Of a stretch of DNA of 64,000 nt, positions 1-52,482 are shown one piece after another; within the stretch, counting starts at the first letter, position 1; the number at the start of each line of letters is the position of its first letter. The position numbers and the translations under genes are program-made. Source of the stretch: Escherichia coli (GTDB lineage Bacteria; Pseudomonadota; Gammaproteobacteria; Enterobacterales; Enterobacteriaceae). The stretch lies in assembly GCF_051903065.1 (NCBI RefSeq), contig NZ_CP178438.1; one strand, written 5' to 3'. The notes below the pieces were generated by a model, which made no database searches, was not told the origin of the DNA, and worked only from the letters and a program-made list of their open reading frames with translations.

Positions 1-1
1 C

Positions 2-2475: not shown

Positions 2476-2486
2476 ATTCCTTCGGT

Positions 2487-2511: not shown

Positions 2512-3202
2512 AATTTGCGTCATCATTTTTTTTATTTTCTAAAGACTCAATATACCCTCGCAAATTAAATTCTTTATTTTCTCTGAGTTTAGGTCCTTCT
2601 TTAGTATCTGAGCCTCGTTGCTCACGTAAACTTTTATTCAAAGCATCGATCAATTCTTGTCTAGAGATTTCCGTTGCAATTAACCCATCAAAATATCTCT
2701 TCATTTTTCTCGCGCTCTCGGTTACTTTAACAACTTCAAAACCAAGGCAGAGCAAATAAATTAGCGTTGTTATTGTAAATCCAGTATCTACAGAGATAAA
2801 ATAGCCAATATCGAGCACTTTCTTAAGTGATTCCAAGGGCATAACCATGCACAATAAAACCAAAAGCAAACCAGTGCCAAGATATAAATAAGTCATTGAG
2901 TTTCTTTCAATCAGCTTGAAGTACTCATCTCTCTGACCTTCAAAGCTAGCAACAATCTTAGGGGGTGTTTTTTTTGGAAGATCGAGGTCTCGAATTTTAT
3001 CCTGAAGATCTACGTATCTTTTAATAAGTAAACCGACTATGGCAGCAGTGATTAATGAAAGCGTTTTCGATAAAATATTGCCCATTTCCACGAGCACATT
3101 TAATTTATAATTAATCAGATATACTACACTCGATGCCAATACTCCACTTAAAATGGATAATATTATATAAAACGCATATCGCTCCACTCGATTTTTAATC
3201 AT
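2510..3202 (-). CDS. Hypothetical 4-TM membrane protein (candidate effector of a two-gene cargo cassette)
   Basis: 230-aa ORF with about four hydrophobic helices and a charged C-terminal tail; AT-rich; overlaps upstream gene by 4 bp. Confidence 0.6.
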   Translation of the reverse strand: MIKNRVERYAFYIILSILSGVLASSVVYLINYKLNVLVEMGNILSKTLSLITAAIVGLLIKRYVDLQDKIRDLDLPKKTPPKIVASFEGQRDEYFKLIERNSMTYLYLGTGLLLVLLCMVMPLESLKKVLDIGYFISVDTGFTITTLIYLLCLGFEVVKVTESARKMKRYFDGLIATEISRQELIDALNKSLREQRGSDTKEGPKLRENKEFNLRGYIESLENKKNDDAN

Positions 3203-4188: not shown

Positions 4189-4270
4189 GAAACATCCATT
4201 ATTAATCTTAGATTTAGTGATATGGAACAATCATACAATCTGTTAATTTTTCTTGCCACAACTCCTTTTC

Positions 4271-4300
4271 GCGCGCTCGTATCCCCGCCACGCCTGCCCG
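4271..4300 (-). other. Putative phage cos site (cohesive-end region)
   Basis: Reverse complement reads GGCGTGGCGGGGATACGAG, resembling the P2/186 cohesive-end sequence as recalled from memory. Confidence 0.35.
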
Positions 4301-4498
4301 CTTTATGTAGTGGTTTTCATGCAGGTGCATGATCTACGCAAAAGCCCGCCAGTTCTGGCGGGCCTTAGCAAAAACGATCCTCAAACGATCATGCGATCTC
4401 ATGCGGCATAGACATGCACTACAGAGCTAACGCCTCGCAAGGGCTCGTTGTTCAACCTTGCTGACGCCAGAAACAAGTTCAGACGCCAGCAACGTTTC

Positions 4499-4732
4499 TT
4501 AATGCAGCCAGCTGTCGTCTTCCCACACCTTCTGCATAATTTTCATCACTTGTTTTCTTTCTTCGTCCAGTTGCAGTCCGGTCAGTTCCACACCGTTAGA
4601 GCTACCTTTGCGGATACGAATTACCGTTTTGGGATACAGGGGGCGCAGATTGCGGTAAAGCTCGGATTCAAGGGCGTCCAGTGTAGACTGGCTAATCTTC
4701 TGCTCTTTATCGATCATTATTTCAATGCGCAT
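4499..4732 (-). CDS. DinI-like protein (possibly the C-terminal part of a frameshifted tum-like antirepressor gene)
   Basis: Translation MRIEIMIDKEQ...WEDDSWLH resembles the DinI family; the longer ORF 4499..4804 overlaps the upstream small ORF in another frame. Confidence 0.6.
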   Translation of the reverse strand: MRIEIMIDKEQKISQSTLDALESELYRNLRPLYPKTVIRIRKGSSNGVELTGLQLDEERKQVMKIMQKVWEDDSWLH

Positions 4733-4742
4733 AAAAGTCACC

Positions 4743-4931
4743 TCAGCTGATGACATCCATTGAGCGGTTGTATTCGTGGGTTCTGATTTTTGCCATGAGT
4801 TCATCTGTCAGTTCAGAAACCCACTGCAGAGCCAGCCCCTTCTCTTCATCACTACACTCACTAGCCGCTACAAGCTTAAGAAAAAAATCAATGCGCTGGA
4901 GCTTCAAAGACTCCAAAAAATAGTCCTGCAT
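4743..4931 (-). CDS. Small SOS-regulated ORF (possible N-terminal part of a tum-like gene)
   Basis: 62-aa ORF directly downstream of a LexA box; with the DinI-like ORF spans about 144 codons. Confidence 0.4.
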   Translation of the reverse strand: MQDYFLESLKLQRIDFFLKLVAASECSDEEKGLALQWVSELTDELMAKIRTHEYNRSMDVIS

Positions 4932-4972
4932 CTTTCCTCCTATGACACCAAAGCAATACTGTATATATAATC

Positions 4973-4992
4973 ACTGTTTATATTTACAGTAT
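4973..4992. promoter_or_regulatory. LexA (SOS) box upstream of the tum/DinI-like operon
   Basis: CTGT-N8-ACAG core (ctgtttatatttacag) at 4974..4989 in an AT-rich promoter region, preceded by a CTGT half-site. Confidence 0.6.
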
Positions 4993-5083
4993 ATAATAAT
5001 CTTACTGATGTAAAACGTTTTTTTACGTTCATCAGCCTGATATGCCTGGTATTATTAAGAGCACGAATTGTTAACCCGCGTAA

Positions 5084-7498
5084 TTAATACAGGTTTCGCC
5101 ACTTATCATCTTCCTGCAAACGCTGGTTCCGATAGAAGATACGCAGGCCTGCTCCTGACGGAATACTGCCACCGCGAAGGAGTAAATCGACCTCTTTCTC
5201 GCTGCCATCAAATCCTCTGGACTTCAGTTCATAGACGAGCTGCTGTCGCTGATGATCTGTAATTCGCTGTTTGTAGTCTTTACGCCGTTTCGGCTTAACC
5301 AGGCGTAACCTTGCTGCCAGTTCCCGGCGCTCTTTTTTGCTCATACTGTGCAGATAATCGTGCAACTCCTTGTCATCCATGCGGGTAATATCCGTTCTGG
5401 TGTCCCCATCAGCTGATTTATCTTTCTCCTGTTGGTTCAAATTTTCAGCAAGGGGACAGTTATTGCCACGAGTCCAAGGGGCGCAAGCGCCCTGGTCGGC
5501 TACCGCCTCCTGAACGTCAACGGCTTTACGAACCATTTTCCACTTCACTGCATGAGTGCAGATCTTGCCCTCTGCAATGGGTGACCAGATGCCATAAATA
5601 CGAATGCCGTGATCGCCATAGGCGGTCGGCTCTTCGTTAATTTCATAAGCAGTTCTGATGAGGTGATATTTGCGGGGAACCAGTACGCCACCCTGCTTCA
5701 TGATGTAAGTGGCAAAACAACCAGCATCAGCAGCAGCCAGGATGGCATCAAGGCGCGGGTTATCCAGTACCGGCGCACCTGCTTTTTTGTCGCCCTGTTG
5801 CCTTGCCGCCTGACCAGCCAGCAATCGCAGTTCACGGTAAGCCTGACGCCCCGGAATACCAAAGAAGCGGAATTGCTGAACACGATGCAGAGACGCCCAG
5901 GCATTAACGTATTCAGCGTTATCACGCAGGGATTTACCCGTTTCCTTGCTGATCTCGCCAGCCAGACCACGCCCGTCAATGTTCTTACTAATGTATTTCG
6001 CAATGTAGCTTGTCGGCGTTCCTTTGCGCGGGTTTATCAGCTCAGACTTAAAGCGTGGCCCCGTGTTATTGCCCAGCTCCTCGCGGTCTTCACGGATGGC
6101 AAACTTACGCAACAATGCAGTAATGGCGCGGCGGTCTTTTTTGCGCATGAAACACAACAGGTGCCAGTGAACTGTGCCGTCATGATGCGGCTCAGCCACC
6201 CGCACGCCATACCAGCGCAACCCGGCTTTGTGCATAGCCTTACGAAATGCAGCAAACATGCCGACCAGATAATCGCTGCTTTGTCTTACTGTCGCGTTGG
6301 TCCAGGTCGGGTTTGGCCTGCCGTTATTTAGCGTGGAATGGAAACGTGACGGACAGGTGATGGTGTAGAAAACGGCGCAGTCACCACGCATTTCCGCGAT
6401 AAGCTCCAGGCCTTTAACACAGGCCATCATCTCGTTGCGGCGATGCGCCGGGTTGCTGCTGCTGGCGTTTACCACATCCTCCATGTTCAGCGTGTCGCCG
6501 TCTTCGTTCACCAGTTCATGAGAACGGAAAAACTCCAGCGACTTACGGCGCTGCTCACGTTTATGCATCACGGCTTCATAGCTAACATAGGGAGATGCTT
6601 TTTTGCTGACCAGGCAGACAGCACGCAACTGCTCTTCCCGCAATTCGCAACGCATCTTCCATAATTTCCGATACCACCAGTCGGCGCACAGCATACGCGC
6701 CAGCGAACCCGGAATGAGTTCATAAGGCACAGGTTTGCGGCGGTTTCTTTTCCGGCGGAGTTGCTCAAACGCAGGCGGTATGACATCCAGTCGCAGGGTT
6801 TCTGCAGCCACCTTTTCCCATGTCTTGCGGATTTCTTCTGGCTTAACATCATCGGAGGCGTACAAATCACCACAAGCGGCATCAAGACACATGCTCATAT
6901 GCGCAGCGACAAGGGTAGACAGGCGTTTCACCTGATCCTGACTCATTTCAGGCAGGATCAGCAGACCGTCCAGCCCCTCATGGCTTGCCATAAAACGAAA
7001 AGATGCAGATAGCTGGCTGTCGCGTACATGCTCCAGTCGTTCCAGACATGGCTTAATCGTCTCACGCAAATAGCGGGAATAAGCCTTTGGCCTGCCCATG
7101 CTGCTGAAATATTCAATACGTTGCATCAGCGGCTTGCTGATATGGGAAGGCTGGGCGTTGACGTCAGCCAGAATGACCATGTCTGGATTAAAACGCTGCT
7201 GCTCATGCGCCATCTTTGCCCGGCTAATGAGCTTATCCTGCTCCATTTCGCGTTGGACAGGATCACGGGATTCATTAAAGAAATAATGCTCCCAGACCTG
7301 ATCACTCAGTGCCTCGCGGCGCAGTTGTTCCTGCTCGTTATCGGTAGCGTACAGAGTGATCAGGTTTGAAAGCGCAGAAACCGGCGCAACTTCCGCCGGG
7401 TCCAGATAAGGGTTAATGGCCTTTTTCGGGCTGTTCCATGAGAACGCTGCGGCAGCCTCGTTAAAGCCGCAGCAGTTGTTCATATCGGCATGACTCAT
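5084..7498 (-). CDS. Phage replication initiation protein (P2/186 gene A-like rolling-circle endonuclease)
   Basis: 804-aa ORF in the early-operon position of P2-like phages. Confidence 0.75.
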
Positions 7499-8352
7499 GC
7501 ACGTACTCCGTACACGGCAGAACTATCCACGCCACGCGAATAATCAAATCCCACCCAGCAGCGCGGCCCGGAAACAGCAATGATTTCTGTTGCTGATTTA
7601 CCCTCGCCAGCTGCCACACCGATGCTGCGTTTTACCTTGATATAGTGGTGAATAAAATTGCGATACAGCGAACGGATCAGGGATGTGTCACTGTTAGAAA
7701 CAATGACCGGATGTCCTTCTGATGACCGATGTTCAAGAACGGATGCCAGGTGATACTGATCATCTTCAGTGAAACCATCAGTGTGATAGCCGGAAAACGT
7801 ACCGTCATACGGCGGATCGCAATACACCACATCCCCCGCCTTCAACATCGCCAGCGTTTCATCAAAGCTGGCGCAGATAAACGTTGCTCGCTGGGCTTTT
7901 TCTGCAAATGCGCGAATTTCTTTTTCAGGGAAATACGGATTTTTATAATTACCGTAGGGAATGTTGAAATGCCCGCTCTTGTTATAGCGACATAAACCAC
8001 GGTAACCGTGACGATTGAGATACAGGAAATATACCGCTTTCATGAAATCAGTAATTTCAGTTGAGTAATTAAACTCCTGCCTTATGTTGTAATAAGCCAC
8101 CTCCCTGTTTGCGATCTCAAATAAAACTCTGGCGCGAGATATAAACGATTCACAATCAGCAGCAACCTTTTTATAGAGGTTGATTAAATCAGGATTAATA
8201 TCCGCAACAAGATAGCTGGGGTACTCCGTCTCCATCATCACTGCACAGGAACCCGCGAAAGGTTCAACCAGTCGCGGGCCAGCAGGAAGGTGTTTTTTCA
8301 GTTCGGACATAATTGCGGTTTTATTTCCCGCCCATTTCAGGATGGTGCTCAT
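7495..8352 (-). CDS. DNA adenine methyltransferase (Dam-like, phage-encoded orphan MTase); start may lie further upstream at 8412
   Basis: ILKWAGNK N-terminal motif and DPPY catalytic motif in translation. Confidence 0.8.
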
Positions 8353-8576
8353 ACAGCACCTCCGTTGTAATGTTTGCCTTTCAGCTCTGCGATTTCCTGA
8401 CAGGTAATGCAAAGCTGCACTCCAGGAATGGCGCGGCGGCGTGCTGGCGGAATTGGCACTTCACATTCAATGCAAAGCACGCGAGACACGCCCGGTGTTT
8501 TGGCACGGGCAGCACGGATATGGCGCTGGCGTTCTTCTTCAACGCGCTGCTGTACGAGATCCATTGCATCAGCCAT
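8349..8576 (-). CDS. TraR/DksA-family C4 zinc-finger protein
   Basis: 75-aa ORF with CxxC...CxxC spacing (CIECEVPI...CITCQE). Confidence 0.6.
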   Translation of the reverse strand: MADAMDLVQQRVEEERQRHIRAARAKTPGVSRVLCIECEVPIPPARRRAIPGVQLCITCQEIAELKGKHYNGGAV

Positions 8577-8815
8577 TAGTGGATCTCCTGCGCTTCGTTC
8601 TGGATTGCTTCAGCGGTCACACGCAGCAGTTCTGCCGCTTCGACGTGGTTTAGCTGGCGGGATGTGATATGACACGCAAGACTATCAAGGCGGGCAGCCA
8701 TTGCTTCAGCCCTTGCCCGGCGTTCTTCCAGACGAGCCTCTGTCAGTAAAATATTAAGCCCTACGTCATCCGGTCCGGTTTTAGTCGTGAGGGTTTCAAT
8801 ATTACGCATAATCAA
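8576..8815 (-). CDS. Hypothetical prophage early protein
   Basis: 79-aa ORF in operon context, translationally coupled to neighbours. Confidence 0.4.
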   Translation of the reverse strand: MIMRNIETLTTKTGPDDVGLNILLTEARLEERRARAEAMAARLDSLACHITSRQLNHVEAAELLRVTAEAIQNEAQEIH

Positions 8816-8876
8816 TTCTCCTGAATTTAGATAAAGGGATGCCCGGCGGGTTTACGCCATTAATTTCATTAGTTGG

Positions 8877-9218
8877 TTAATTCGGCATGGTTAGCCGTCT
8901 GGGAAATAAGCTCACTACTGCACGAAAATGATTCATTGCTTTAATCAACTCCCGCTTTTCGTCAGTGGTCAGCTCATTAATGCTGATGCTATGACGTTCA
9001 GCTGGAATTTTTGCCATAAAGAATATGGCAGCCAGTGCCCGTTTATTTTGTTCGCTATTAATATCCCGTGGATCACGCATATCTTTAATAAACCGTTCAA
9101 GCTCTGACTCAATATTAAGACCAAAAACTTTCGCCCTTAACTCCGCAATATGATTAAGTCCATTCAGGCGTTCACCGGGGCTTAATGGAACAGTCGCCGC
9201 AGCGCCTTCAATAGCCAT
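8877..9218 (-). CDS. Hypothetical prophage early protein
   Basis: 113-aa ORF in early operon. Confidence 0.4.
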   Translation of the reverse strand: MAIEGAAATVPLSPGERLNGLNHIAELRAKVFGLNIESELERFIKDMRDPRDINSEQNKRALAAIFFMAKIPAERHSISINELTTDEKRELIKAMNHFRAVVSLFPRRLTMPN

Positions 9219-9412
9219 TTGTTCCCCCGTTTTTTCGTAGATAGTTCTGCCAGCAATTCATCTTGTGAACGGCACGGATGCCAGCGTTTACCATCCTCAC
9301 CCATGATCCAGCCGTGACCGTAGTGCATTGCCGGGCTTTGTTTAACCAGCAGCGATGCAAATGATGGTTCTTTCGTAAGCATAAGCACCTCACAGCAAAC
9401 CGAATGAAGCAC
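9182..9412 (-). CDS. Hypothetical prophage early protein
   Basis: 76-aa ORF downstream of the CII-like gene. Confidence 0.35.
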   Translation of the reverse strand: MLHSVCCEVLMLTKEPSFASLLVKQSPAMHYGHGWIMGEDGKRWHPCRSQDELLAELSTKKRGNKWLLKALRRLFH

Positions 9413-9899
9413 CGAGGCCAGTCACGGTATCAACTGCACTCGCCATCGCAGGGTTAGCCTGTAAACGGGCCTGCAGTGAAACAGCAGCCAGCGCCATCAG
9501 TCGTGTTACAGAGTTAATGCTGCTGATAGCATCACGACGACCTGCACTGGTTTTTACATCGCCAGATACCGCACCTGCAGCAACACGCCCGATCTCTGCG
9601 GTTGCACTCATGACGTAATGCGGCAGTTTCTCTTTTGCTACCTCATTAATCGGTACACATGGCAGGCAGTGAATCTGTGCCAGAAAACCATCTATCAGCG
9701 TTGAATCTTCAGTCAGATCGGTAAGCAGCCAGATTTCTGGCGCATTGAGCTGATGCGGTTGATCTGGGTTGAGTTTGTTTCGCAGAGTCTGGACATTCAT
9801 TCCTGCACGTTCTGCCAGCTTCGCCATATTGTGACGAAGTGCAAAAGCTCTACAGGCTTCATCAAAATGCGGGTGTTTGGAAATCTTATAATCAAACAT
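9390..9899 (-). CDS. cII: 186 CII-like transcriptional activator
   Basis: 169-aa translation closely resembles coliphage 186 CII as recalled (MFDYKISKHPHFDEACRAFA...GASFGLL). Confidence 0.7.
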   Translation of the reverse strand: MFDYKISKHPHFDEACRAFALRHNMAKLAERAGMNVQTLRNKLNPDQPHQLNAPEIWLLTDLTEDSTLIDGFLAQIHCLPCVPINEVAKEKLPHYVMSATAEIGRVAAGAVSGDVKTSAGRRDAISSINSVTRLMALAAVSLQARLQANPAMASAVDTVTGLGASFGLL

Positions 9900-9931
9900 G
9901 CTACCCCCTTAGAAAGTTCTCATAATTGAAC

Positions 9932-10174
9932 TCACTTACCAACAATGACGCGGAAGTTGGAATGACCTAGGGATTCACGGACCTGATCGGTTTTGTACAT
10001 TAAATAACGCAGACTTACGCGGCCTTTGTTTTTTTCTTTCTTGACCATGTATTTAGCAAGCTGACCATGGTGAATTTTTTGATACACGGAGCCGCGGGAG
10101 ATACCTTCCCATTCCGCGAACTCTGCTGGCGTAGCCATCTCTTTTGGTACACGAATTGAAATATCAGTGCTCAT
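9932..10174 (-). CDS. Apl/Cox-like excisionase and lytic-switch HTH protein
   Basis: 80-aa HTH ORF first in the early operon, divergent from the repressor gene. Confidence 0.6.
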   Translation of the reverse strand: MSTDISIRVPKEMATPAEFAEWEGISRGSVYQKIHHGQLAKYMVKKEKNKGRVSLRYLMYKTDQVRESLGHSNFRVIVGK

Positions 10175-10233
10175 AGTGCAGTATCTCCCGATTAAGGTTT
10201 GGTTTACGTCGTTTTATCTCGTTTTACTTGATT

Positions 10234-10276
10234 CAATATTTGATACATCGAGATACTACGATCCAATATTTGATAC
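10234..10276. promoter_or_regulatory. Putative operator repeats in the CI/apl divergent promoter region
   Basis: Two copies of CAATATTTGATAC spaced 30 bp apart. Confidence 0.4.
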
Positions 10277-10293
10277 GTCAACAGGATTAAAAA

Positions 10294-10926
10294 ATGATAC
10301 AGGTAAAGGCTGGAGAGAATACAGGGGGAAGAGAGGCTATCCATAGACTAATGGCAGCCTATGATTTCAAGTCCAGACAGCAACTTTGCGATCACTTAGG
10401 CGCATCAAAAAGCACCATGGCAAACAGATACTTAAGAGATAGTTTTCCTGCAGAGTGGGTGATTCAGTGCGCCTTGGAAACAGGAGTTTCTTTACTGTGG
10501 CTAACCACCGGACAGGGAGAGCCAGGTCCAAACATTGAACCTAAAAAAAATATCAATTCCGTGAACTCCAGCAAAGTTGTACCTCTTTCTGAACTAGTAT
10601 CTCCTGAAATTGACAAGGCGACTCTCAACGGTGGTTTATTGGTCGATGCTGGAAAAGCAATCATTGATAGCAGCATACTCCCCTCAGACTCAAGCAACCT
10701 ACTGCTGGTGACTACTTCTGGTGATTCTTATTTAATAGATCGCAACCAAACACCACCAGTAAATGGTATGTGGTTAGTCGATATCGACGGGATAAAAAGC
10801 ATTGTTAAATTGACTCGGCTCCCGGGAAACAAATTAGTAGTGCATCAGGATGATTCATCGTTTGAGTGCGGTCTGGATGACATTGAGGTAGTAGGCCGCG
10901 CACTGAAAATCATTAAGAGCCTTTGA
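10294..10926 (+). CDS. cI: Prophage CI-like immunity repressor
   Basis: 210-aa ORF with N-terminal HTH, located directly upstream of int as in 186. Confidence 0.6.
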   Translation: MIQVKAGENTGGREAIHRLMAAYDFKSRQQLCDHLGASKSTMANRYLRDSFPAEWVIQCALETGVSLLWLTTGQGEPGPNIEPKKNINSVNSSKVVPLSELVSPEIDKATLNGGLLVDAGKAIIDSSILPSDSSNLLLVTTSGDSYLIDRNQTPPVNGMWLVDIDGIKSIVKLTRLPGNKLVVHQDDSSFECGLDDIEVVGRALKIIKSL

Positions 10927-10927
10927 T

Positions 10928-11941
10928 ATGACCATCAGAAAACAGCCGAACGGAAAATGGTTGTGTGAGTGCTATCCCAATGGACGCAATGGCAAGCGCG
11001 TGCGTAAGCAATTTGCTACGAAAGGCGAAGCCATTGCGTTTGAAAGCTTCACAATGGAAGAAGTGAATAAAAAACCGTGGTTGGGTGAAAAGGATGATCG
11101 GCGACGCCTATCAGAATTAATTGAGCTTTGGTATTCCCTGTATGGTCAAACACTCGCAGACCCCAAGCGCCTCATGGCGAAACTTAGAATTATCTGTAAT
11201 GGTCTAGGCGATCCCATCGCCTCAGAACTGACAGCTGGTGACTTTACAAAATACCGCGAAGCACGGTTAAAAGGTGAAATACGAAATGAAGATGGCACGC
11301 TTATGTCGCCCGTTAAGCCCCGCACGGTAAACCTTGAACAGCGCAATCTATCATCTGTGTTCGGTACATTAAAAAAACTAGGACACTGGTCAGCACCAAA
11401 CCCGCTGGCAGGACTTCCGACCTTCAAAATTGCCGAAGGTGAGCTGGCTTTTCTTTCCACAGACGAAATCAAGCGCCTGTTGGCGGCATGTGCTGAATCT
11501 CAAAACCCTAGCTTACTAATGATTGCAAAAATATGCCTAGCTACTGGCGCACGGTGGAGTGAAGCCGAAAATCTGCAGGGCCACCAAATATCGAAATACC
11601 GAATTACTTATACAAAAACAAAAGGCAAGAAAAACAGAACAGTACCCATATCACAGGAGCTGTATGACGAACTCCCAAAGAACAGAGGGAAGTTATTCTC
11701 ACCATGTAGAAAAGCCTTTGAACGAGCAGTAAAACGGGCAGGTATAGATCTACCGGATGGCCAATGCACCCACGTGCTGCGACATACGTTTGCTAGTCAC
11801 TTTATGATGAATGGCGGGAACATACTTGTGCTAAGGGATATTTTGGGACATTCGGATATCAAGATGACCATGGTTTACTCACATTTCTCACCAGATCATC
11901 TTGAAGATGCCGTTACTAAGAACCCATTAAACTTGATATAA
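10928..11941 (+). CDS. int: Tyrosine integrase, P2 family
   Basis: 337 aa; C-terminal HxLRHT...Y catalytic region; resembles P2 Int. Confidence 0.9.
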   Translation: MTIRKQPNGKWLCECYPNGRNGKRVRKQFATKGEAIAFESFTMEEVNKKPWLGEKDDRRRLSELIELWYSLYGQTLADPKRLMAKLRIICNGLGDPIASELTAGDFTKYREARLKGEIRNEDGTLMSPVKPRTVNLEQRNLSSVFGTLKKLGHWSAPNPLAGLPTFKIAEGELAFLSTDEIKRLLAACAESQNPSLLMIAKICLATGARWSEAENLQGHQISKYRITYTKTKGKKNRTVPISQELYDELPKNRGKLFSPCRKAFERAVKRAGIDLPDGQCTHVLRHTFASHFMMNGGNILVLRDILGHSDIKMTMVYSHFSPDHLEDAVTKNPLNLI

Positions 11942-11954
11942 AACAGCCAAAATT

Positions 11955-13712
11955 CTATTTCATCAAGTAATCCAATTCATCCTTCATAGGTATAACTTGC
12001 TCATAAAGTCTATGGTAGGATTTTCCAATTGCGCCCCTAAATTGAATAAGTTTAGGGGAAAAGCTACCGATATTAATAATATGTTCTTGCGCTATACCAG
12101 GATATGGATCGATAAAAATAATCTCTGTCATACCTAACTGATAAGCTTTTTTAGCACAAAGTTCACAAGGGCTAGCTGTAGTATATAGTTTCCCTCCATT
12201 AATACCGACCCCACCATATTTGGCCAATTGCAAAAAAGCATTCTCCTCTGCGTGTAATGCACGGGTATGCACTTGATTCCCTTTCTTTTCATCATCAAGG
12301 CTGTTGTGAATATCTTTAAAACAATATGGCAAATTAAGTCCTTTAAAAACAGTAGAACTTGAATCACTCGCCCTTATTTTTATTAAATTTTCTTTAACTT
12401 TACTCCTAAATTTTGTATTACTTCGTTCGTACAGGCTATATGTTCCCTCATCAAAATCATGCAATAACCCATCAAATGACCTCATAGAACAAGGAACTTG
12501 ACCTTTTGCTACATCGTTCCAACCAACTGACTTGATAGAGTTATCATTATCTGTCACAACCGCCCCTACTTGCCTAGATATACATCCAGAATTTAGTTTT
12601 ACAGTATATGCAACTTGCATAACCCTTTCCATGGCGGTAGGAGATATTAATCCAGGGTGTTGCATTAATGATACATACCACGCAATTTGTGCTTTGAGAA
12701 AATTATTATTATCAAATTCTTTTTTAGGGTTAAAAAAATGTATATCTGAAATTTCAATGCATTTTTTTACATTAGGATTAGTAAGATGATTATACTCGCC
12801 ATCTCCTTTACCAGATTCTTCATCATTAATTTTCTTTATCTGTTCCTCTGAGAACTTATGTAATTTCTTTAAATATCTGGTTCGATGTTCATCTGGTGCA
12901 TTTATAGAAACCAGATGGAATGCAGCATATCTATCTTTGAAGAATTTAGCTTCATACGGGTTACGTATCGCATCAATGACTATATACGCTTTATTATTCT
13001 TTACTTTTCTAATTATTTTAATAACACGATTAATTGTTTCAGGTAAATGAAAAACAGCCTTTGGAATAAAGTCTTGATTTTCATAATCTACATCAACCTT
13101 CCCTATTCTTCTAATTGACTTTCCTGCTGACTGATATAGCTCAATATATAAACCTGGCTCTAGTTCATTTAATTCCCTTTTAAAATCCCGTGTAAATTTT
13201 CGAGTAAGAGTTAATATCCTAATAAAGGTATCTTTCCCCCTGCCTTTAAAGTCAATCTCATCATCATGATTAAGAAGATTTTTTATCACCTCAAGATATT
13301 TTATCTTCAACAAACTTTTAGCGAACACACCATTAACAACCAGTTTCTTGGCTACCTTAAAGGAAATCGAATTTTCTTTTTTATCGGGGATTTTACTTGC
13401 AGAAAACTGAATGAATTTAGCTAAGGCCGATGGAGATAAAAGGAGCAAATATATTGAAATGAGATCACTGACCTTTATCGAATAGAAGTTCTTCCAATGA
13501 GTCTCTGCAAAATTTTTTACTATTTCATAACGCCGCAAATCCAATCCTTTATAATACTCAGCCAAGACGTTACTATCTGGAAAAGATATTTCTTTTTGTT
13601 CTAAAATATTTGCTGCAGTAGTACATCCTGAGCCAGTTCTCCCAGTTAAACCAATAAGAATAAATTGACTATTTTCTAAAAAAAGCTCACTAATAAATTT
13701 GTGTTCTCTCAT
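11955..13712 (-). CDS. P-loop nucleotide-kinase / cytidine-deaminase fusion protein (candidate antiphage dCTP-deaminase-type cargo gene)
   Basis: N-terminal GLTGRTGSGCTT Walker-A-like motif; C-terminal HAEENA...PCELC zinc-deaminase motif; AT-rich; lies between int and attR. Confidence 0.65.
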   Translation of the reverse strand: MREHKFISELFLENSQFILIGLTGRTGSGCTTAANILEQKEISFPDSNVLAEYYKGLDLRRYEIVKNFAETHWKNFYSIKVSDLISIYLLLLSPSALAKFIQFSASKIPDKKENSISFKVAKKLVVNGVFAKSLLKIKYLEVIKNLLNHDDEIDFKGRGKDTFIRILTLTRKFTRDFKRELNELEPGLYIELYQSAGKSIRRIGKVDVDYENQDFIPKAVFHLPETINRVIKIIRKVKNNKAYIVIDAIRNPYEAKFFKDRYAAFHLVSINAPDEHRTRYLKKLHKFSEEQIKKINDEESGKGDGEYNHLTNPNVKKCIEISDIHFFNPKKEFDNNNFLKAQIAWYVSLMQHPGLISPTAMERVMQVAYTVKLNSGCISRQVGAVVTDNDNSIKSVGWNDVAKGQVPCSMRSFDGLLHDFDEGTYSLYERSNTKFRSKVKENLIKIRASDSSSTVFKGLNLPYCFKDIHNSLDDEKKGNQVHTRALHAEENAFLQLAKYGGVGINGGKLYTTASPCELCAKKAYQLGMTEIIFIDPYPGIAQEHIINIGSFSPKLIQFRGAIGKSYHRLYEQVIPMKDELDYLMK

Positions 13713-13934
13713 TTCGCACCTGTTACGTTATAACACAAGTCTCTTCCATGTTGTATTTATTAGTATTTATTAAAAAACAAGAAATTGCAACATAGCGGTA
13801 ACAATACACACACCAAGAAAATGGCGGCAACTTGGCGGCAGAGCTTTAAAAACGTATAAAACGGATAAACACAAAACAATACCAACCAACTGTTTTTGAA
13901 AACAAATTATTGTTTTCATTATAATATAAATGGT

Positions 13935-13979
13935 ATGTAGGAATTTCGGACGCGGGTTCAACTCCCGCCAGCTCCACCA
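13935..13979 (+). other. Partial duplicate of ssrA (tmRNA) 3' end: prophage/island attR
   Basis: ATGTAGGAATTTCGGACGCGGGTTCAACTCCCGCCAGCTCCACCA matches the tmRNA 3' terminus (T-arm, acceptor, CCA) with no upstream tmRNA body. Confidence 0.85.
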
Positions 13980-14108
13980 ATCATGATTGGACGGTGTAAA
14001 AACAACACCAACAAAAACAGGAAGTTAGAAGTCTCAGCAGGACACCGACCAGACGGTGAGGAGACATAAAAGGATACGCAAAGGAGCCGCGGCTCCTGGT
14101 GACATGAA

Positions 14109-14130
14109 AGCCCACAGATGTGGGCTTTTT
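14109..14130 (+). terminator. Rho-independent terminator hairpin
   Basis: gcccaca-ga-tgtgggc stem followed by TTTTT. Confidence 0.6.
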
Positions 14131-14139
14131 CGTTGATGG

Positions 14140-17100
14140 TCAGAACGACCAGTTCACACCAGCCACCGCGTTCCACGGGGATTCCACATCGGCACCGTTG
14201 CTATACCCCACCCCGAGATGCCCGCTTAACGTACTGCTGAATGAGGCTTTAATACCTGCCTGGTATATTTCACGTCTGCCCGACAAATCATTGACGAAAT
14301 TACCGTCATTATTCACCTTCACCCGGTTATCATCGACAAATTCTTTGCGCACAGCCGCCTTCAGCCACGGCTCAACTTCCATACCGTTCCCCAGACGCAT
14401 GTTGTAACTCAGCGTTGCACCCAGTTCACGATATATACTGCGGGTATCGACTGATTTCGATTCCATGCCATTGGATAAATGATATTCAGGGTTATCAGCG
14501 GTGAACCCCGTTAACGATGCATACGGCGTCAGGTTCCAGTTACCATCGGTAAATCGCATCCCGGTTTCAATGTGACCGCCCAGCCCGTTGCTGCGATAAC
14601 TGCCGTTGGCGGCTCCACCGCTGCTCATTTTACCGGCTACGTTACTTTCAAAACGGTTCAGCTTCACGACACCGTCCAGATAAAAACCACTTTCATGTTC
14701 CCAACTGGCATAGCCGCCCAGAGAATAACTGCCCACACTGCCATGTCCTCCGCGATCAAAACCGATATGTGAATGGGAATAGCCCATAAAAGCGCCCAGC
14801 GTGGCAATCCCTTCAGGAATATCATTACGACTGTCGATTCCCACTGTCATTCCGGTCAGCGTCTGCTCAAACCCGGCACCCGCATCGGTGGTGACATTAT
14901 TACGGGTGTTATACGTCGCCCCCCAGACATTATTGTTGTGTGGACTCGCTTTCATTATGTTCAACCGCTCGCGAATACTGTTTAGCTCAGCATCAAATAC
15001 CAACGGTAATGTTGCAGCCATATTGAGTACGGCTGCCGTAGAAGGCGTGATGCGTTTCTCCGGAACGGGTGTCGGCGTTGGATCGGGAGTCGGGTCTGGT
15101 TTCGGATCCGGTTTTGGGTCTGGTTTTGGATCTGGCTTCGGATTTGGGTTGGGATTTGGGTTGGGATCCGGGTTGGGTTTGACATCATTGGTCAGGTTCC
15201 AGTTGCTGTTGCCATCGCTTTTCAGGACATACTCATAGGTCCCAAGATCAACGAAACCGCCAGTATTGCCCAGCGAAAACGAAGCATCCCCTCCCCCTGT
15301 TTTCACCAGCGTCATCGCGTCGTCAGACTGAGGGCTGACGCCGGTATCCTGAACAAAGATTTTAAAATTACCAGTGGCGTTGTTGTTGACGACCAGTTGA
15401 TCGCCCCGGGAGCCAGCAACGTTGGTATGCAGGTAGAAATTACCGCTACCGGAAAGTTCATTGGTTGTCAGCGTATTGTAGATACCGTTAGTTGTGGCAG
15501 GCGCTGCTGTTTGTGCTGATAAATAAACATCACCGTCGTTGAGTAGCAAACTGTTTACTCTATATTCGCAGTTGCTGGTACCTGCACAGGAATTATTGCT
15601 GTTAAGCCAGACACTGCCCCGGCTGGCAGCCGTCAGGTCGGCAAGCGTGGTATCGACGCCATTTCCCAGAGTTAATGTCGCGCTATCGGTAATCCGAACC
15701 GCCCCTTCAAGTTTTACTGGCGTAACATTATCCCGTGGCGTGATTAACGACAGGCTTCCTGTCGCGCCACTGACCGATGCATCCGCCAGCGTACCTGCGT
15801 AGATGATTGCCGTCCCGCCAGCGACCTGGAGATCTTCTGCCCGGGCCAGAGGCTGAAACTCATCTTTTGACCGCCCAAGGGTATATTGCCCGCCAGAGTT
15901 AACCTTTGTAGCGGAGTCCTGACCCAGGTTTTGCATTGCACCACCCTTGCCAACCGTGGAGTCATGGGCTTCGGTACCTGCTAATACCAATAAATTACCA
16001 CCATTTTCCAGCAACATATTGGTCGCTAAATTTCCGGCAATGGAAAAGGTGCCGTACTGGTGAGTACCGCTGATTTCAATACCGTTAGCCGTGCTCGTCT
16101 GGAGAGCGGCACCGCTGTTCTGGACGATATCTGTCGCTTTGCCATTATCGTTGACTGTCAGCGTTCCGCCTTCATTGATCGTTGTTTTTATTGCTTCTCC
16201 GTTAGCTGAAACTGTTTGTATTCCGCCGTCGTTAATTGTTGTCTCATTCGCCACACCCTCGACGATTTGTTCACCGCCGGTGAGCGTCGTGCCTGTCGCA
16301 GTGGCTTTTGTTTTGACGATCTCCCGTCCGCCCGTATTGACCTGTGTTTTGTCAGAAGAGGTGTCTGACTCTACGGTTAACACGCCGCCATTTGCCAGCA
16401 GGATATTGTTCGCCGCACCCTGCTCGATGCTGAACGCGACGCCATCCGCGCGTGTTCCTGTGACCCGCGTCGCCCTGGTGGTTGCAACCAAAGCGCCCTG
16501 CCTACTCTGCTGTATCCCCGTTGCGCTGCCTTTCTCCCACACATCGAGTGTGCCGCCGTCATTAAGCACCGAGTTTTCAGCCAGACCGCCCTCATTAACT
16601 ACCTGTGAACCCCCATTAATAATGGAACCTTCCGCTGTCCCGTTTGCCATAATTTGTTGTAGGCCAGAGACGATATCGGTATTGATTGCCTTACCATAAT
16701 TCTGAACGGTTTGCGTGCCACCATTGATGTGTGTTTTCTCTGTTGACCCACCATCAACAATTTGTTCACCACTTTCGATATTTGCCTCAGTGGCTAATCC
16801 ATATACCGTTTGCTTGCCACCTTTGATATTTGCTTTATCAGAAGTGGCACTGGCATATATTGTTTGGGTGCCAGCACTATTGAGTACAGTGCCAACATCT
16901 TTTCCATAAACATCCATTTTGCCGTTGGCATTAATAATCGTATCAACTGCCCGGGAACCAGTGACGACTGTTAATGAGCCAGCGTTTTCCAGCACTACAT
17001 TTTTAGCTTCTGAATTCCTGATGTAGAAAGCATCACCATAACTGTTGGTTCCTTCGATAAGTGTTCCGGAGGTCGTGGAAGCAATTAATGCGCCGCCGGA

Positions 17101-17470
17101 TTGTTGCTCAACATGCTTAGCCTCACCACCGTCCTGAACCTCCAGAACGCCGCCATTATTAAGTCTGGTGCTATCTGTTTTAGCCTCCTTCTGGACAATC
17201 AGCTTACCGCCAGCATCAATGGTAGTATTTTTCGCCGAGGTTTTAGCCACTACCGTCAGTTCGCCGGTATTTTCCAGCACAACATAATTAGCCTCCCCTC
17301 CGGTAATAGTGAAGTGAGAGAGCTTGTTGTATCCTTCGATATCAGTCCCTGCACCCGTGTTGGCAACTAAAGCACTGCCCGTCTCCTGGTTAACCCCATG
17401 TGCAATACCGCCGGTATAGACAATCAGCGAGCCTCCGGCGCTAATATTGCTGCCAATTGCCGTACCATCT
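14140..17470 (-). pseudogene. ypjA: Autotransporter adhesin (YpjA-like), 5'-truncated by IS903
   Basis: Repetitive passenger domain, PNPDP/KPDP linker, C-terminal beta-barrel ending in WSF; ORF lacks signal peptide and runs into the IS903 end. Confidence 0.7.
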
Positions 17471-18527
17471 GGCTTTGTTGAATAAATCAGATTTCGGGTA
17501 AGTCTCCCCCGTAGCGGGTTGTGTTTTCAGGCAATACGCACGCTTTCAGGCATACCTGCTTTCGTCATTTTGTTCAGCGCTCGTACCAGGGCCATAGCCT
17601 CTGCAACCTGACCATCGTAGTCACGCAGTGTCAGTGAACCCCCGAACAGCTGTTTTACCCGGTACATCGCCGTTTCCGCTATCGAGCGACGGTTGTAATC
17701 TGTTGTCCATTTCCACCGCGCATTACTCCCGGTCATTCGCTGATTAGCCACTGCACGGTTACGGTCTGCATATTCACCGGGCCAGTAACCCGCACCTTTT
17801 CGGGGAGGGATAAGCGCGCTGATTTTCTTACGCCGCAGTTCATCGTGACATAGCCGGGTATCGTAAGCGCCATCGGCGGCGGCTGACCTGATTTTCCGGT
17901 GGGTTTGCCGGATTAACCCGGGGAAGGCCTCTGAGTCCGTAACGTTGTTCAGCGACAGGTCAGCGCAGATGATTTCATGTGTTTTACTGTCAACGGCGAG
18001 ATGCAGCTTACGCCAGATACGGCGGCGTTCCTGGCCATGCTTTTTGACTTTCCACTCGCCTTCACCGAAGACCTTCAGCCCGGTGGAATCAATTACCAGG
18101 TGTGCGATTTCACCCCGGGTGGGCGTTTTGAAACTGACATTAACCGACTTTGCCCGCCTGCTGACACAGCTGTAATCCGGGCAGCGTAGCGGAACGTTCA
18201 TCAGAGAAAAAATGGAATCAATAAAGCCCTGCGCAGCGCGCAGGGTCAGCCTGAATACGCGTTTAATGACCAGCACAGTCGTGATGGCAAGGTCAGAATA
18301 GCGCTGAGGTCTGCCTCGTGAAGAAGGTGTTGCTGACTCATACCAGGCCTGAATAGCTTCATCATCCAGCCAGAAAGTTATGGAGCCACGGTTGATGAGG
18401 GCTTTATTGTAGGTGGGCCAGTTGGTGATTTTGAACTTTTGCTTTGCCACGGAACGGTCTGCGTTGTCGGGAAGATACGTGATCTGATCCTTCAACTCAG
18501 CAAAAGTTCGATTTATTCAACAAAGCC
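17471..18527 (-). mobile_element. IS903-group insertion sequence (IS5 family), complete 1057 bp
   Basis: Terminal inverted repeats GGCTTTGTTGAATAAATC at both ends. Confidence 0.85.
17527..18495 (-). CDS. IS903 transposase
   Basis: 322-aa ORF; translation matches IS903 transposase as recalled. Confidence 0.85.
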   Translation of the reverse strand: MKDQITYLPDNADRSVAKQKFKITNWPTYNKALINRGSITFWLDDEAIQAWYESATPSSRGRPQRYSDLAITTVLVIKRVFRLTLRAAQGFIDSIFSLMNVPLRCPDYSCVSRRAKSVNVSFKTPTRGEIAHLVIDSTGLKVFGEGEWKVKKHGQERRRIWRKLHLAVDSKTHEIICADLSLNNVTDSEAFPGLIRQTHRKIRSAAADGAYDTRLCHDELRRKKISALIPPRKGAGYWPGEYADRNRAVANQRMTGSNARWKWTTDYNRRSIAETAMYRVKQLFGGSLTLRDYDGQVAEAMALVRALNKMTKAGMPESVRIA

Positions 18528-18583
18528 GGGTGATGCTGCCAACTTACTGATTTAGTGTATGATGGTGTTTTTGAGGTGCTCCA

Positions 18584-18859
18584 GTGGCTTCTGTTTCTAT
18601 CAGCTGTCCCTCCTGTTCAGCTACTGACGGGGTGGTGCGTAACGGCAAAAGCACCGCCGGACATCAGCGCTATCTCTGCTCTCACTGCCGTAAAACATGG
18701 CAACTGCAGTTCACTTACACCGCTTCTCAACCCGGTACGCACCAGAAAATCATTGATATGGCCATGAATGGCGTTGGATGCCGGGCAACAGCCCGCATTA
18801 TGGGCGTTGGCCTCAACACGATTTTACGTCACTTAAAAAACTCAGGCCGCAGTCGGTAA
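18584..18859 (+). CDS. insA: IS1 InsA
   Basis: [21 protein letters not shown]... translation. Confidence 0.9.
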
Positions 18860-19281
18860 CCTCGCGCATACAGCCGGGCAGTGACGTCATCGTCTGCGCG
18901 GAAATGGACGAACAGTGGGGCTATGTCGGGGCTAAATCGCGCCAGCGCTGGCTGTTTTACGCGTATGACAGGCTCCGGAAGACGGTTGTTGCGCACGTAT
19001 TCGGTGAACGCACTATGGCGACGCTGGGGCGTCTTATGAGCCTGCTGTCACCCTTTGACGTGGTGATATGGATGACGGATGGCTGGCCGCTGTATGAATC
19101 CCGCCTGAAGGGAAAGCTGCACGTAATCAGCAAGCGATATACGCAGCGAATTGAGCGGCATAACCTGAATCTGAGGCAGCACCTGGCACGGCTGGGACGG
19201 AAGTCGCTGTCGTTCTCAAAATCGGTGGAGCTGCATGACAAAGTCATCGGGCATTATCTGAACATAAAACACTATCAATAA
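18778..19281 (+). CDS. insB: IS1 InsB (transposase expressed as InsAB' by frameshift)
   Basis: 167-aa ORF overlapping insA in the -1 frame. Confidence 0.9.
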
Positions 19282-19296
19282 GTTGGAGTCATTACC

Positions 19297-20468
19297 AAGA
19301 ACGTAAACAAATCCATCCAGAAGATATACATCTCACTGCAAAAGACTTCGAAGCAAGTAAAGATAACATCTCTAAGGATGAATGGGAAAACCTCCATGCA
19401 TTAAAAGAAAAGCGTTTAAATGGAATGCCTAAAACAACCCCCAAAAGTGACCAGGTTATTATGCTGCAAAATCAATACGTTCGTGAAATGCGAAAATATG
19501 GCGTACGAGGTTTACGTTATGATGCGGCAAAACACTCAAAACATGAACAAATAGAAAGATCAATAACCCCACCGCTTAAAAATTATAATGAGCGATTACA
19601 CAATACTAACTTATTTAACCCAAAATATCATGAAAAAGCCGTTATGAATTACATGGAATATCTGGTAACTAGTCAGTTGGATGAACAACAAATGTCATCG
19701 CTGCTTTATGAAAGAGATGATTTAAGCGCCATTGATTTTTCATTGCTCATGAAGACGATAAAAGCCTTTTCATTTGGTGGCGATCTCCAAACCCTTGCAT
19801 CAAAACCGGGTTCCACAATCTCAAGCATCCCATCAGAAAGACGGATATTGATTAACATTAACCACGATTTCCCTAACAATGGTAATCTTTTCAATGACTT
19901 TCTATTTAACCATCAACAAGATGAACAATTAGCAATGGCATATATGGCCGCTCTCCCGTTCAGCAGGCCTTTAGTTTACTGGGATGGCCAAGTATTAAAA
20001 TCAACGACTGAGATTAAAAATGATGATGGGTCCACGCGTGTCGGCGGTGAGGCGTGGCTTAATAAAGGTTGCTCTACCTATCAGCAGCTCTACAATGAAT
20101 TCCACGCATTATATATAGATAAAGCAGGAATATGGAGCGCATTTGAGGGTGTATTTGCAACTAAAAACGTTCTGGCCTTTAGTCGTGGGGATTCTGTGAA
20201 TATTAATCACTCTCCTCATGACGGACTAGTTATAATAAATAAAGGAAACGAAGAAATTGAAGGTGCCTGGCCTAACAAATTGCAACCAGGAATATATAAA
20301 AATATGGGGAGTAATAGCGTTAACATTATTATTAATAATACACGCAAAAGTATTCCCCCTGGTAAAGTATTTACGCTTAAAGGCGGAACTCTAAATATCA
20401 ACATTCCTGGGCGTAGCGCTCTTCTTTTAGGGAAAACAGGAGAACTGCCGAACTATCTCTATTTGTAA
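19297..20468 (+). pseudogene. ygaQ: 3' fragment of a glycoside-hydrolase family 13 (alpha-amylase-like, YgaQ-type) gene truncated by IS1
   Basis: Reading frame open from the IS1 boundary; GLRYDAAKH catalytic-region motif. Confidence 0.55.
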
Positions 20469-20690: not shown

Positions 20691-21782
<1,092 letters not shown>

Positions 21783-25834: not shown

Positions 25835-25844
25835 CACCGCCCCC

Positions 25845-26110
25845 ATGCCGGAGGCGACGCTGCGCGTCTTGTCCGGCCTACAGGTATCAGGTCGGATAAG
25901 GCGTTTACGCCGCATCCGACATTCGGCGCACCATGCCGGAGGCGACGCTTACGCGTCTTGTCCGGCCTACGGAAATGTAGGTCGGATAAGGCGTTTACGC
26001 CGCATCCGACAATCGGCGCACCCATGCCGGAGGCGACGCTTTGCGTCTTGTCCGGCCTACGGGGATCCAGGTCGGATAAGGCGTTTACGCCGCATCCGAC
26101 AATCTGTACG
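25845..26110. repeat. REP/BIME cluster (about 4 REP units) between gabT and gabP
   Basis: Repeated gccggatgcggcgtaaacgccttatccgacct units in alternating orientation. Confidence 0.85.
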
Positions 26111-52479: not shown

Positions 52480-52482
52480 AAA

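Follow-up and report, generated by a model that had tools for sequence, protein, structure and literature searches.

An abutting IS903B-IS1A pair at a deletion between ypjA and ygaQ in Escherichia coli

Both IS1 and IS903 are described in textbooks, and genes are well known to be lost through IS-linked deletion; adjacent deletions are classic for IS1, for which they were reportedly described by Reif and Saedler in 1975. For IS903, adjacent deletions are called common in a passage of PMC11708052 that refers to Weinert et al. 1983, and the same article reports that in the long-term evolution experiment deletions adjacent to IS150 grew stepwise, with nested end points. Here we analyzed a 64,000-nucleotide stretch of E. 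coli DNA (hereafter the window) in which a complete IS903B and a complete IS1A are separated by one nucleotide. Like an IS-adjacent deletion, which arises by intramolecular replicative transposition, the window keeps an exact IS terminus at the joint, shows no duplication, has collinear flanks and lacks the intervening DNA, and the deletion end points of its lineage are nested and growing, as were those of IS150 in the long-term evolution experiment. On the other hand, two IS families meet in the window, which is unlike the usual IS-adjacent deletion and makes the acting transposase ambiguous, and the window has neither the time series nor the intermediates of the evolution experiment.

A similar junction exists in E. 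coli LA3 (NZ_CP141840), where an IS903B was inserted in the left terminus of an IS1. The junction ...AACAAAGCC-G-GGTGATGC... is identical over 141 bp in LA3 and the window, both elements are intact in both places, and the same 9-mer, GGGTGATGC, is found in the same register. Only LA3, however, has a second copy of this 9-mer on the left of IS903, as expected of a simple insertion, whereas the window has ypjA sequence there; the chromosomal locus is also another one and the IS1 is of the subtype IS1B. In the Klebsiella pneumoniae plasmid pRHBSTW-00433_2 (NZ_CP056531), the right end of IS903B again lies a few bases from the left end of IS1, the spacer is the start of the IS903 duplication and the IS1 has no duplication, but the spacer is 4 nt long (GGAT) instead of 1 nt, the pair is plasmid-borne and the flanks are unrelated. 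Pattern scans of genome and metagenome contig collections gave no match in which any IS903 end and any IS1 end were 0-9 nt apart, and two of the three remaining combinations of an IS903 end with an IS1 end had no abutting cases in E. coli genomes. Since the other end combinations were not seen, LA3 is a single precedent and does not prove a hot spot.

The IS903B lies at 17471-18527 (1057 bp, minus strand). Its terminal inverted repeats, GGCTTTGTTGAATAAATC, are perfect over 18 bp (17471-17488 and 18510-18527), and its transposase ORF (17527-18495, minus strand) runs uninterrupted through 322 codons and scores 357 bits against the NCBIfam model NF033579 (IS5 family), the cut-off of which is 140. 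Over the 1057 bp the copy shows no difference from that in 23CRST031 and 4-14 differences from five other typical IS903B copies, while a sixth, divergent copy on the plasmid pSYM5/6 differs at 68 positions. The length, the inverted repeats, the ORF and this near identity identify the element as IS903 (IS5 family, IS903 group). After the single G at 18528 comes the IS1A (18529-19296, 768 bp, plus strand), for which we relied on the sequence, profile matches and copy comparison. It begins with GGTGATGCTGCC... and ends with ...GGAGTCATTACC, forming imperfect inverted repeats of about 23 bp (GGTGATGCTGCC... and GGTAATGACTCC...). Its frames insA (18584-18859) and insB' (18778-19281) share an A6C slippery site (AAAAAAC, programmed -1 frameshift) at 18835-18841, NF033558 matches both parts with 91 and 146 bits, and PGAP labels the identical copy in a sibling genome "programmed frameshift". 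No difference was found over the 768 bases between this copy and those in ECNB21-M121, GCA_949766195 and Z503, and the length, the repeats and the insA/insB' frameshift layout are those of IS1. A reading made from the letters of the window only, hereafter the sequence-only reading, had described a complete IS903 and a complete IS1 one nucleotide apart, and the coordinates, inverted repeats and ORFs bear this out to the base.

Perfect 9-bp duplications were present in all of the simple IS903 insertions that we examined elsewhere (5/5). In the window, IS903B taken alone is flanked by GTACCATCT on the left (17462-17470) and GGGTGATGC on the right (18528-18536), so that a 9-bp target-site duplication is absent, and IS1A taken alone lies between ACAAAGCCG and AAGAACGTA (19297-19305), which likewise leaves it with no duplication of 8-9 bp. 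Nor do the 9-mers around the whole pair, GTACCATCT and AAGAACGTA, match each other, a difference already noticed in the sequence-only reading. The absence at IS903B concerns the insertion history and later rearrangement of the copy and is no argument about which element it is; at IS1A it similarly reflects a later deletion and leaves membership in IS1 unaffected. The 9-mer GGGTGATGC joins the G to the 8 nt with which the left inverted repeat of IS1 begins; it equals the LA3 duplication and is a candidate 9-bp target of IS903, and AAGAACGTA, going by the relatives described below, would be where a deletion from the right end of IS1 ended in ygaQ. In the intact ypjA of these relatives GTACCATCT is followed by TTCTCAAC; in the window, either an IS903 duplication in ypjA has left it behind as its left copy, or a deletion from the left end of IS903 stopped there.

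On the left, the pair borders a remnant of ypjA/ehaD (14140-17470, minus strand), delimited by the ORF, the TIGR01414 match, the PGAP annotation of the sibling copy and the MG1655 alignment. The remnant consists of the C-terminal 1109 sense codons and the stop codon, and its frame is open to the IS903 boundary. It keeps part of the passenger and the beta-barrel (NCBIfam TIGR01414, autotransporter barrel, 333 bits) and lacks the N-terminal ~419 codons with the start codon and the signal peptide, and the autotransporter frame was thus rightly described before as running into the IS903 end with neither of these. PGAP calls the copy in the sibling genome "incomplete; missing N-terminus". Judged from its sequence, which has neither the full passenger nor the signal peptide, YpjA/EhaD, an AIDA-type autotransporter adhesin, is a pseudogene here, and with start codon and signal peptide gone, export is predicted to be impossible. 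On the right, a remnant of ygaQ, an alpha-amylase family pseudogene (19296-20468, plus strand), was recognized from sibling annotation, MG1655 alignment and Pfam; its C-terminal 390 codons form a frame that opens at the final base of IS1, and 1,081 nt are gone from the 5' end of the gene. An alpha-amylase-like frame opening out of the IS1 right end had therefore been seen correctly, but calling it GH13-like rests on the annotation of intact homologues; the remnant itself contains no GH13 catalytic (beta/alpha)8 domain, and its sole match is Pfam Alpha-amylase_C (E = 1.2e-5). The catalytic part of YgaQ falls in the deleted 1,081 nt, and the family assignment of the intact homologues is that given in their record annotation. 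The first intact gene on this side is glaH (csiD; 20805-21782, plus strand), placed by the annotation of an identical sibling sequence and by the ORF list, and the intergenic region upstream of it is untouched.

When the window was aligned with MG1655, the left flank stopped at 2,781,470 and the right flank resumed at 2,787,478, the two being collinear with 6,007 bp absent between them. This segment contains 1,256 nt of the 5' part of ypjA, pinH, ypjB, ypjC, ileY and 1,081 nt of the 5' part of ygaQ. All of the genes suspected from the letters to be missing are thus within the gap, although the ancestor was probably not K-12-like but carried an island, as described below. The 64 kb of the window contain no tRNA-Ile gene, and ileY was not found elsewhere; the sibling genome does have ileX, the paralogue of ileY, likewise with a CAU anticodon. 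For the lineage allele of the ypjA-5'/ypjCB/ileY' segment, neither complete sibling genome was among the top matches listed, and the same was true for the island, which among complete genomes was found only in ECNB21-M121. Matching duplications, or the missing genes at lineage identity in the two sibling genomes, would have spoken against a deletion; neither was found.

All three junctions are identical in two independent complete RefSeq genomes, 23CRST027 and 23CRST031 (NZ_AP045789 and NZ_AP045800), from which the window differs by single-base homopolymer indels only; the arrangement is therefore no assembly artefact. A junction search of 5,426 complete E. coli genomes showed the two outer junctions in no other clone, and no strain with just one of the two elements at the site was among these genomes; the junction at 19297 is shared by nine draft contigs. 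The same ssrA-ypjA-ileY-ygaQ locus is disrupted in other strains too, IS1 and/or IS903B interrupting ypjA and ygaQ in Z503, 2017.17.03CC, NDM5, FELIX_MS724 and GCA_949766195. In these strains IS1-linked deletions variously take the 5' end of ypjA, pinH and ypjCB, and the 5' part of ygaQ together with ileY is lost in 2017.17.03CC and kept in Z503. The break points of the five strains are each different, and none has the outer junctions of the window.

In an identity search of RefSeq with the right flank, the next genome was just 98.4% identical. The true relatives were found by exact-protein look-ups and have identical LhgD and GabD proteins, and their flanks differ from the window by 0-3 SNPs. 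Their ileY contains an inserted type I-A retron island with an integrase, and they have the same IS1, preceded on the left by a G. In ECNB21-M121 the order is intact ypjA, a 47-nt ileY remnant, integrase, PtuB, PtuA, retron RT, IS1A (plus strand) and glaH, the retron type being confirmed by the PADLOC models RT_I-A, PtuA and PtuB. The left flank of the IS1 in GCA_949766195, ...AATTTCG followed directly by GGTGATGC, is common to ECNB21-M121. The right junctions of IS1 differ in this pair (20371 and 20516) from each other and from that of the window (19297), which is the least deleted of the three nested end points, and in the lineage as a whole IS1 has at least four junctions with no duplication. 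Since a tree built from the flank SNPs gives the three structural types as a star in which all variants are private, it is by parsimony that we regard the ancestor of the window as probably having carried the island. The nested right end points imply at least two deletions, and the true loss was probably about 11.7 kb to the left of IS1, in addition to an earlier, separate deletion at the right end of IS1.

Starting from what was observed directly, namely the anatomy of the pair, the absent duplications, the collinear deletion, the structures of the relatives and the LA3 precedent, we infer the order of events and the transposase behind the last joint. Our preferred reading, to which we assign a probability of about 0.5, is that deletions driven by transposases occurred step by step in an IS-rich E. 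coli clone, leaving the pair as their scar, and that IS903 made the last joint. Going by the relatives, an island with a tyrosine integrase and a type I-A (Ec78-like) retron would have stood between ypjCB and ygaQ, inserted in the 3' half of ileY, with IS1A in its right part preceded by ...AATTTCG. The right end of IS1 would then have made an adjacent deletion ending at 19297, taking with it the rest of the island, the intact copy of ileY and the first 1,081 nt of ygaQ; the sister strains have the same IS1 with the same left flank and deletions that reach further right, as given above. Next, IS903B would have been joined to the 9-bp target G+GGTGATGC overlapping the left terminus of IS1, and the ~11.7 kb from that target to ypjA position 17470 would have been lost, including the 5' end of ypjA, the pinH remnant, ypjCB, the ileY remnant, the integrase and the retron RT-PtuA-PtuB genes. 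Because a 9-bp staggered target leaves the full IS1 on one side, both elements would remain intact.

This second step could have been taken by three routes, all of which would yield the observed structure. IS903 may have inserted at the IS1 end, as in LA3, and then deleted leftwards; it may have been in ypjA first, its right end attacking the target by intramolecular transposition; or two IS903 copies may have recombined. Recombination between directly repeated IS copies likewise leaves one IS with two different 9-mers flanking it, but it requires a second copy of IS903 (or IS1) that is no longer observable. That IS903 made this joint at all is a leaning at about even odds, based on the analogy with LA3, where GGGTGATGC is a proven IS903 target duplication. 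The published target motif of IS903, WTTYA-N9-TRAAW (PMC2577343), is matched at 7 of 10 positions by the reconstructed island-IS1 site, which ranks in the top 4% of local positions, and at 4 of 10 by the ypjA site, a target of median quality; this score favors the island-IS1 site weakly, and the scores of real IS903 insertions range between 2 and 8 of 10.

The lone G at 18528 could come equally well from three sources: the initial base of an IS903 duplication GTACCATCT, the base preceding the lineage IS1 in the relatives (...AATTTCG), and, which we rate unlikely, the first base of a GATCCAGTA duplication as in FELIX_MS724. It thus fits equally well a simple insertion of IS903 in ypjA followed by an IS1 left-end deletion that stopped 1 nt from IS903, and we consider such a history possible, though distinctly less probable than the preferred one. 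In this case IS903B would be an ordinary ypjA insertion with the duplication GTACCATCT, IS1 would have attacked a target made up of the terminal 8 nt of IS903 and the base that opens the right-hand copy of the duplication, and TACCATCT with everything up to IS1 would have been removed, leaving the G as a residue of the duplication. The left 9-mer does start with G, as this model demands, and in the K. pneumoniae plasmid the left 9-mer GGATTACTC is followed by IS903-GGAT-IS1, a 4-base match expected by chance in 1/256. Copies of IS1 lacking a duplication and nested IS1 deletions are frequent at the locus and in the lineage, where IS1 is the element with a demonstrated tendency to make deletions, and the count of events equals that of the preferred reading. 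The model would, however, make the agreement with the LA3 duplication in both register and 9-mer a pure coincidence, no case was found of an IS1 inserted beside an IS903 end with an IS1 duplication, and the 4 of 10 motif positions at the ypjA site add weak evidence against it. In exact look-ups, which are insensitive in draft assemblies, neither the junction protein predicted for a simple IS903 insertion in ypjA nor that predicted for IS903 at the island-IS1 junction was on record; the native junction ORF, used as a positive control, was found in two complete assemblies only.

We think it improbable that a single deletion of 6 kb acted on a K-12-like arrangement that never had the island, with IS1 in ygaQ and IS903 in ypjA as independent insertions. 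The clean gap of 6,007 bp against MG1655 would suit such an event, insertions of IS1 in ygaQ arose independently in many lineages (in 14 genomes an IS1 end lies no more than a few hundred bp from this site), and the SNP tree does not place the clone of the window inside the island-bearing group. Yet every structurally resolved relative (0-3 SNPs) has an identical IS1A here in the same orientation, with nested right junctions, and it is much less parsimonious to suppose that another IS1 inserted on its own into these 1.2 kb in the same clone. Moreover, a simple IS1 insertion would put A, not G, to the left of IS1, so that this explanation works only when it is combined with a last joint made by IS1.

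A source of the IS903 in a ygaQ insertion like that of FELIX_MS724, which then deleted leftwards into ypjA before IS1 arrived with a local deletion of ~21 bp, is very improbable. The IS903B of FELIX_MS724 has the duplication GATCCAGTA, points the same way, lies 13 nt upstream of the IS1 right junction and is also followed by a G; the scheme, however, needs four events, including an implausibly short (21-bp) intramolecular event of IS1, the flanks of that strain are ~97% identical to the window and so belong to a different lineage, its IS903 copy differs at 11 positions, and relatives within the lineage have no IS903 in ygaQ. We rejected this source as unparsimonious and of another lineage. Finally, that no deletion occurred, the arrangement being due to two simple insertions, misassembly or relocated genes, hardly deserves consideration, and we rejected it: IS elements are a classic source of misassembly but nothing else was found in its favor, whereas duplications are absent at both elements, the junctions agree in two separate complete assemblies, and at lineage identity the missing segment was not found in the sibling genomes, with no tRNA-Ile in the window. 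The sequence-only reading, which had favored an IS-mediated deletion over two simple insertions, is upheld by the absent duplications, the collinear flanks and the loss of the interval that it listed.

In LA3 the IS903 lies 8 nt inside the IS1 end, and in the Klebsiella plasmid the IS1 end lies inside the IS903 duplication. A rather unlikely idea built on these two cases is that the termini of IS1 and IS903 are reciprocal preferred targets for each other's transposases. If it were true, abutted IS903-IS1 pairs would recur as two-sided deletion engines, and the pair might have become fixed in the clone, perhaps as the loss of the retron island, ileY or YpjA was advantageous.

The event itself is ordinary, well-understood genome decay, and IS-linked loss with mismatched flanks is already known. 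It explains the ypjA and ygaQ pseudogenes and the absence of ileY in this clone. Going by the relatives, an anti-phage retron island was probably erased too, so that K-12 as a reference misstates what was lost. With ileY and the retron gone, the decoding of AUA would be left to ileX alone; we expect no strong phenotype, since ileX is kept and just 57% of complete E. coli genomes have ileY with its native flank. The locus offers a natural example of nested IS-adjacent deletions like those seen in laboratory evolution, and its local value lies mainly in annotation and epidemiology, where the clone-specific junction sequences could act as markers.

A complete IS903B (17471-18527, 1057 bp) with perfect 18-bp inverted repeats and a complete IS1A (18529-19296, 768 bp) are separated in the window, a stretch of E. 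coli chromosome, by a single G (18528). The IS903B transposase is an open ORF of 322 codons on the minus strand (357 bits with the NCBIfam IS5 model), and in IS1A insA, insB' and the A6C frameshift site are all present. The 9-mers outside the whole pair are GTACCATCT on the left and AAGAACGTA on the right, and neither element taken alone is bounded by matching 9-mers (GTACCATCT/GGGTGATGC for IS903, ACAAAGCCG/AAGAACGTA for IS1), which bears out the abutting pair with differing flanks described in the sequence-only reading. At every simple IS903 insertion retrieved from other places, the 9-bp duplication is perfect. Both elements show all the structural features of their families except a flanking duplication, and the missing duplication tells of the insertion history, not of element identity.

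Left of IS903B lies a minus-strand ypjA/ehaD remnant of 1109 sense codons and the stop, which retains the beta-barrel and is devoid of the start, the signal peptide and ~419 codons. Right of IS1A, the last 390 codons of ygaQ run in a frame open out of the element, with Alpha-amylase_C as the only detectable domain, and are followed by glaH-lhgD-gabDTP. When aligned with MG1655, the left flank ends at 2,781,470 and the right flank picks up at 2,787,478; the intervening 6,007 bp comprise 1,256 nt of ypjA, then pinH, ypjB, ypjC and ileY, and 1,081 nt of ygaQ, exactly the genes that had been listed as missing relative to the K-12 order. ARAGORN detected no tRNA-Ile within the 64-kb window. The sibling genome 23CRST027 carries, after mug, the paralogue ileX (CAU anticodon), which differs from ileY in one compensated acceptor-stem pair; the rare AUA codon is read by both ileX and ileY (PMC2408971). 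Absence of ileY is common, because only 3,091 of the 5,426 complete E. coli genomes have ileY with its native 5' flank (query L010 9263-9600); in many genomes there is just one tRNA-Ile(CAU) gene.

Relatives of the clone (the window strain and its siblings 23CRST027 and 23CRST031) were found by exact-protein look-up with its LhgD, with 0-3 SNPs between their flanks and those of the window. In ECNB21-M121 (NZ_CP083585), ypjA is intact and is followed by a pinH remnant, ypjCB and only the 3' 47 nt of ileY, then by an island consisting of a frameshifted tyrosine integrase, a hypothetical gene, PtuB, PtuA, a retron reverse transcriptase, a Fic remnant and two small ORFs, and then by IS1A (plus strand) and directly glaH; no intact tRNA-Ile is present at this locus either. 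By PADLOC, the retron with its three genes is of type I-A (Ec78-like: RT, PtuA, PtuB), and the insertion point of the integrase-borne island in the relatives is the 3' half of ileY. The IS1 of ECNB21-M121 is identical to that of the window base for base, has ...CTCCTGAATTTCG as its left neighbour, and its right junction corresponds to window 20516. Its right end stands ~290 bp upstream of the glaH (csiD) start (L015 2950-3255), where it could affect the csiD promoter region; the same intergenic region is intact in the window. GCA_949766195 has the left flank of ECNB21-M121 and a right junction at 20371, and three draft contigs are of this type, while nine draft contigs begin inside IS1 with the window's own 19297 junction. 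In GCA_949766195 a second, inverted IS1 cuts ypjA at a point 101 bp past the IS903 site of the window, with a deletion that reaches into the island (L011 1661-2529), and therefore one lineage has seen two independent truncations of ypjA within ~100 bp. Among the complete genomes, the island was found only in ECNB21-M121, the siblings not being among the matches listed, and the siblings were likewise not among the matches listed at lineage identity for the segment from the 5' part of ypjA to the ileY remnant.

We consider the structure to be the product of stepwise IS-mediated deletion, with a probability of about 0.9. The simplest reading is that one ancestral IS1 was anchored on the island and that deletion from its right end would have progressed into ygaQ, to 19297, then to 20371 and then to 20516; IS-adjacent deletions that grow step by step are documented from the long-term evolution experiment (PMC11708052). 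In the clone, a separate event would have removed ~11.7 kb left of IS1, a stretch corresponding to ECNB21-M121 reverse-complement 4261-15992. The IS-mediated deletion proposed from the sequence alone is supported in this way and refined in two respects: more than one step is involved, and the starting point was probably not a K-12-like ancestor. The event falls into the classic category of IS-adjacent deletions, and there is nothing new in kind here.

Two models of how the last joint arose, one with IS903 and one with IS1 as the acting element, both predict the lone G. A joint made by IS903, through insertion and then leftward deletion, right-end attack from ypjA, or recombination between two IS903 copies, has roughly even odds in our view, because the register and the 9-mer are exactly as in E. 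coli LA3. The lineage IS1 would have supplied its ancestral left neighbour G, and the 9-mer G+GGTGATGC would have been the IS903 target. LA3 has the same 141-bp junction, but there IS903 has GGGTGATGC on both sides and is therefore a genuine insertion, its site lying 8 nt inside the IS1 end. A joint made by IS1, in which IS903 inserted simply in ypjA and a deletion from the IS1 left end halted one base from it, seems less likely; it would leave over exactly the lone G, as the duplication GTACCATCT starts with G, and it has a precedent in the K. pneumoniae plasmid NZ_CP056531, where the IS903 left 9-mer is GGATTACTC and IS903-GGAT-IS1 follows, the IS1 end being joined within the IS903 duplication. 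In the same plasmid (~2340-2370), GTAATGATACCAACGTG stands directly after the IS1 right end (…CATTACC, then CACAGGTGG); it resembles the terminus of a further, diverged IS1-like element and would be a second IS-against-IS junction. Compared with the published IS903 target motif, WTTYA-N9-TRAAW (PMC2577343), the site between island and IS1 fits at 7 of 10 positions (top 4% locally) and the ypjA site at 4 of 10, a comparison that discriminates weakly because real insertions span 2 to 8 of 10. Searches for two other end combinations and of two large contig collections yielded no further abutting IS903/IS1 case, and junction searches and predicted-protein look-ups, of low sensitivity as judged by a positive control, returned no intermediates.

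An assembly artefact is ruled out, since all three junctions are identical in 23CRST027 (NZ_AP045789) and 23CRST031 (NZ_AP045800), two complete and mutually independent RefSeq genomes from Ecuador. Over the compared span, from window 13935 rightwards to 27000 (23CRST027) and 41000 (23CRST031), each sibling has one 1-base homopolymer indel relative to the window, the former in IS903 (1056 bp) and the latter in IS1 (GGG vs GGGG, about 19026-19029). These indels, because of which PGAP labels the sibling transposases 'frameshifted', probably arose as sequencing errors, given that the window has both ORFs intact. The siblings do not carry the P2-like prophage occupying window 1-13934, and the window thus represents a third, closely related strain; in the prophage-free siblings ssrA stands directly before ypjA. 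The right part of this prophage fills the first ~13.9 kb of the window and holds a portal gene (1447-2475), a replication endonuclease, an integrase (10928-11941) and, at the attR end, an anti-phage dCTP deaminase (11955-13712), with a 45-nt copy of the ssrA 3' end at 13935-13979. Elsewhere in the window, the gabT-gabP intergenic region (25843-26104) contains two overlapping copies, ~91% identical and offset by ~88 bp, which look like tandem REP/BIME-type repeats, and a minus-strand cluster of four tRNA-Arg(ACG) and one tRNA-Ser(GCT) lies at 51848-52575 in an argQZYV-serV type arrangement.

Across E. coli, the ypjA-ygaQ locus serves as a general hot spot for IS elements. Other lineages have simple IS903B insertions at three further sites (duplications GATCCAGTA, GGTGGTATT and TATGTTTTC), IS1-linked deletions at the locus are seen in Z503 and 2017.17.03CC, and in 14 genomes an IS1 end lies no more than a few hundred bp away from the ygaQ junction of the window. 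YpjA is an autotransporter associated with biofilm (PMC9289746). Phenotypic effects may plausibly follow from the truncation of YpjA, from the loss of one of the two tRNA genes that decode AUA, and from the retron's probable loss.
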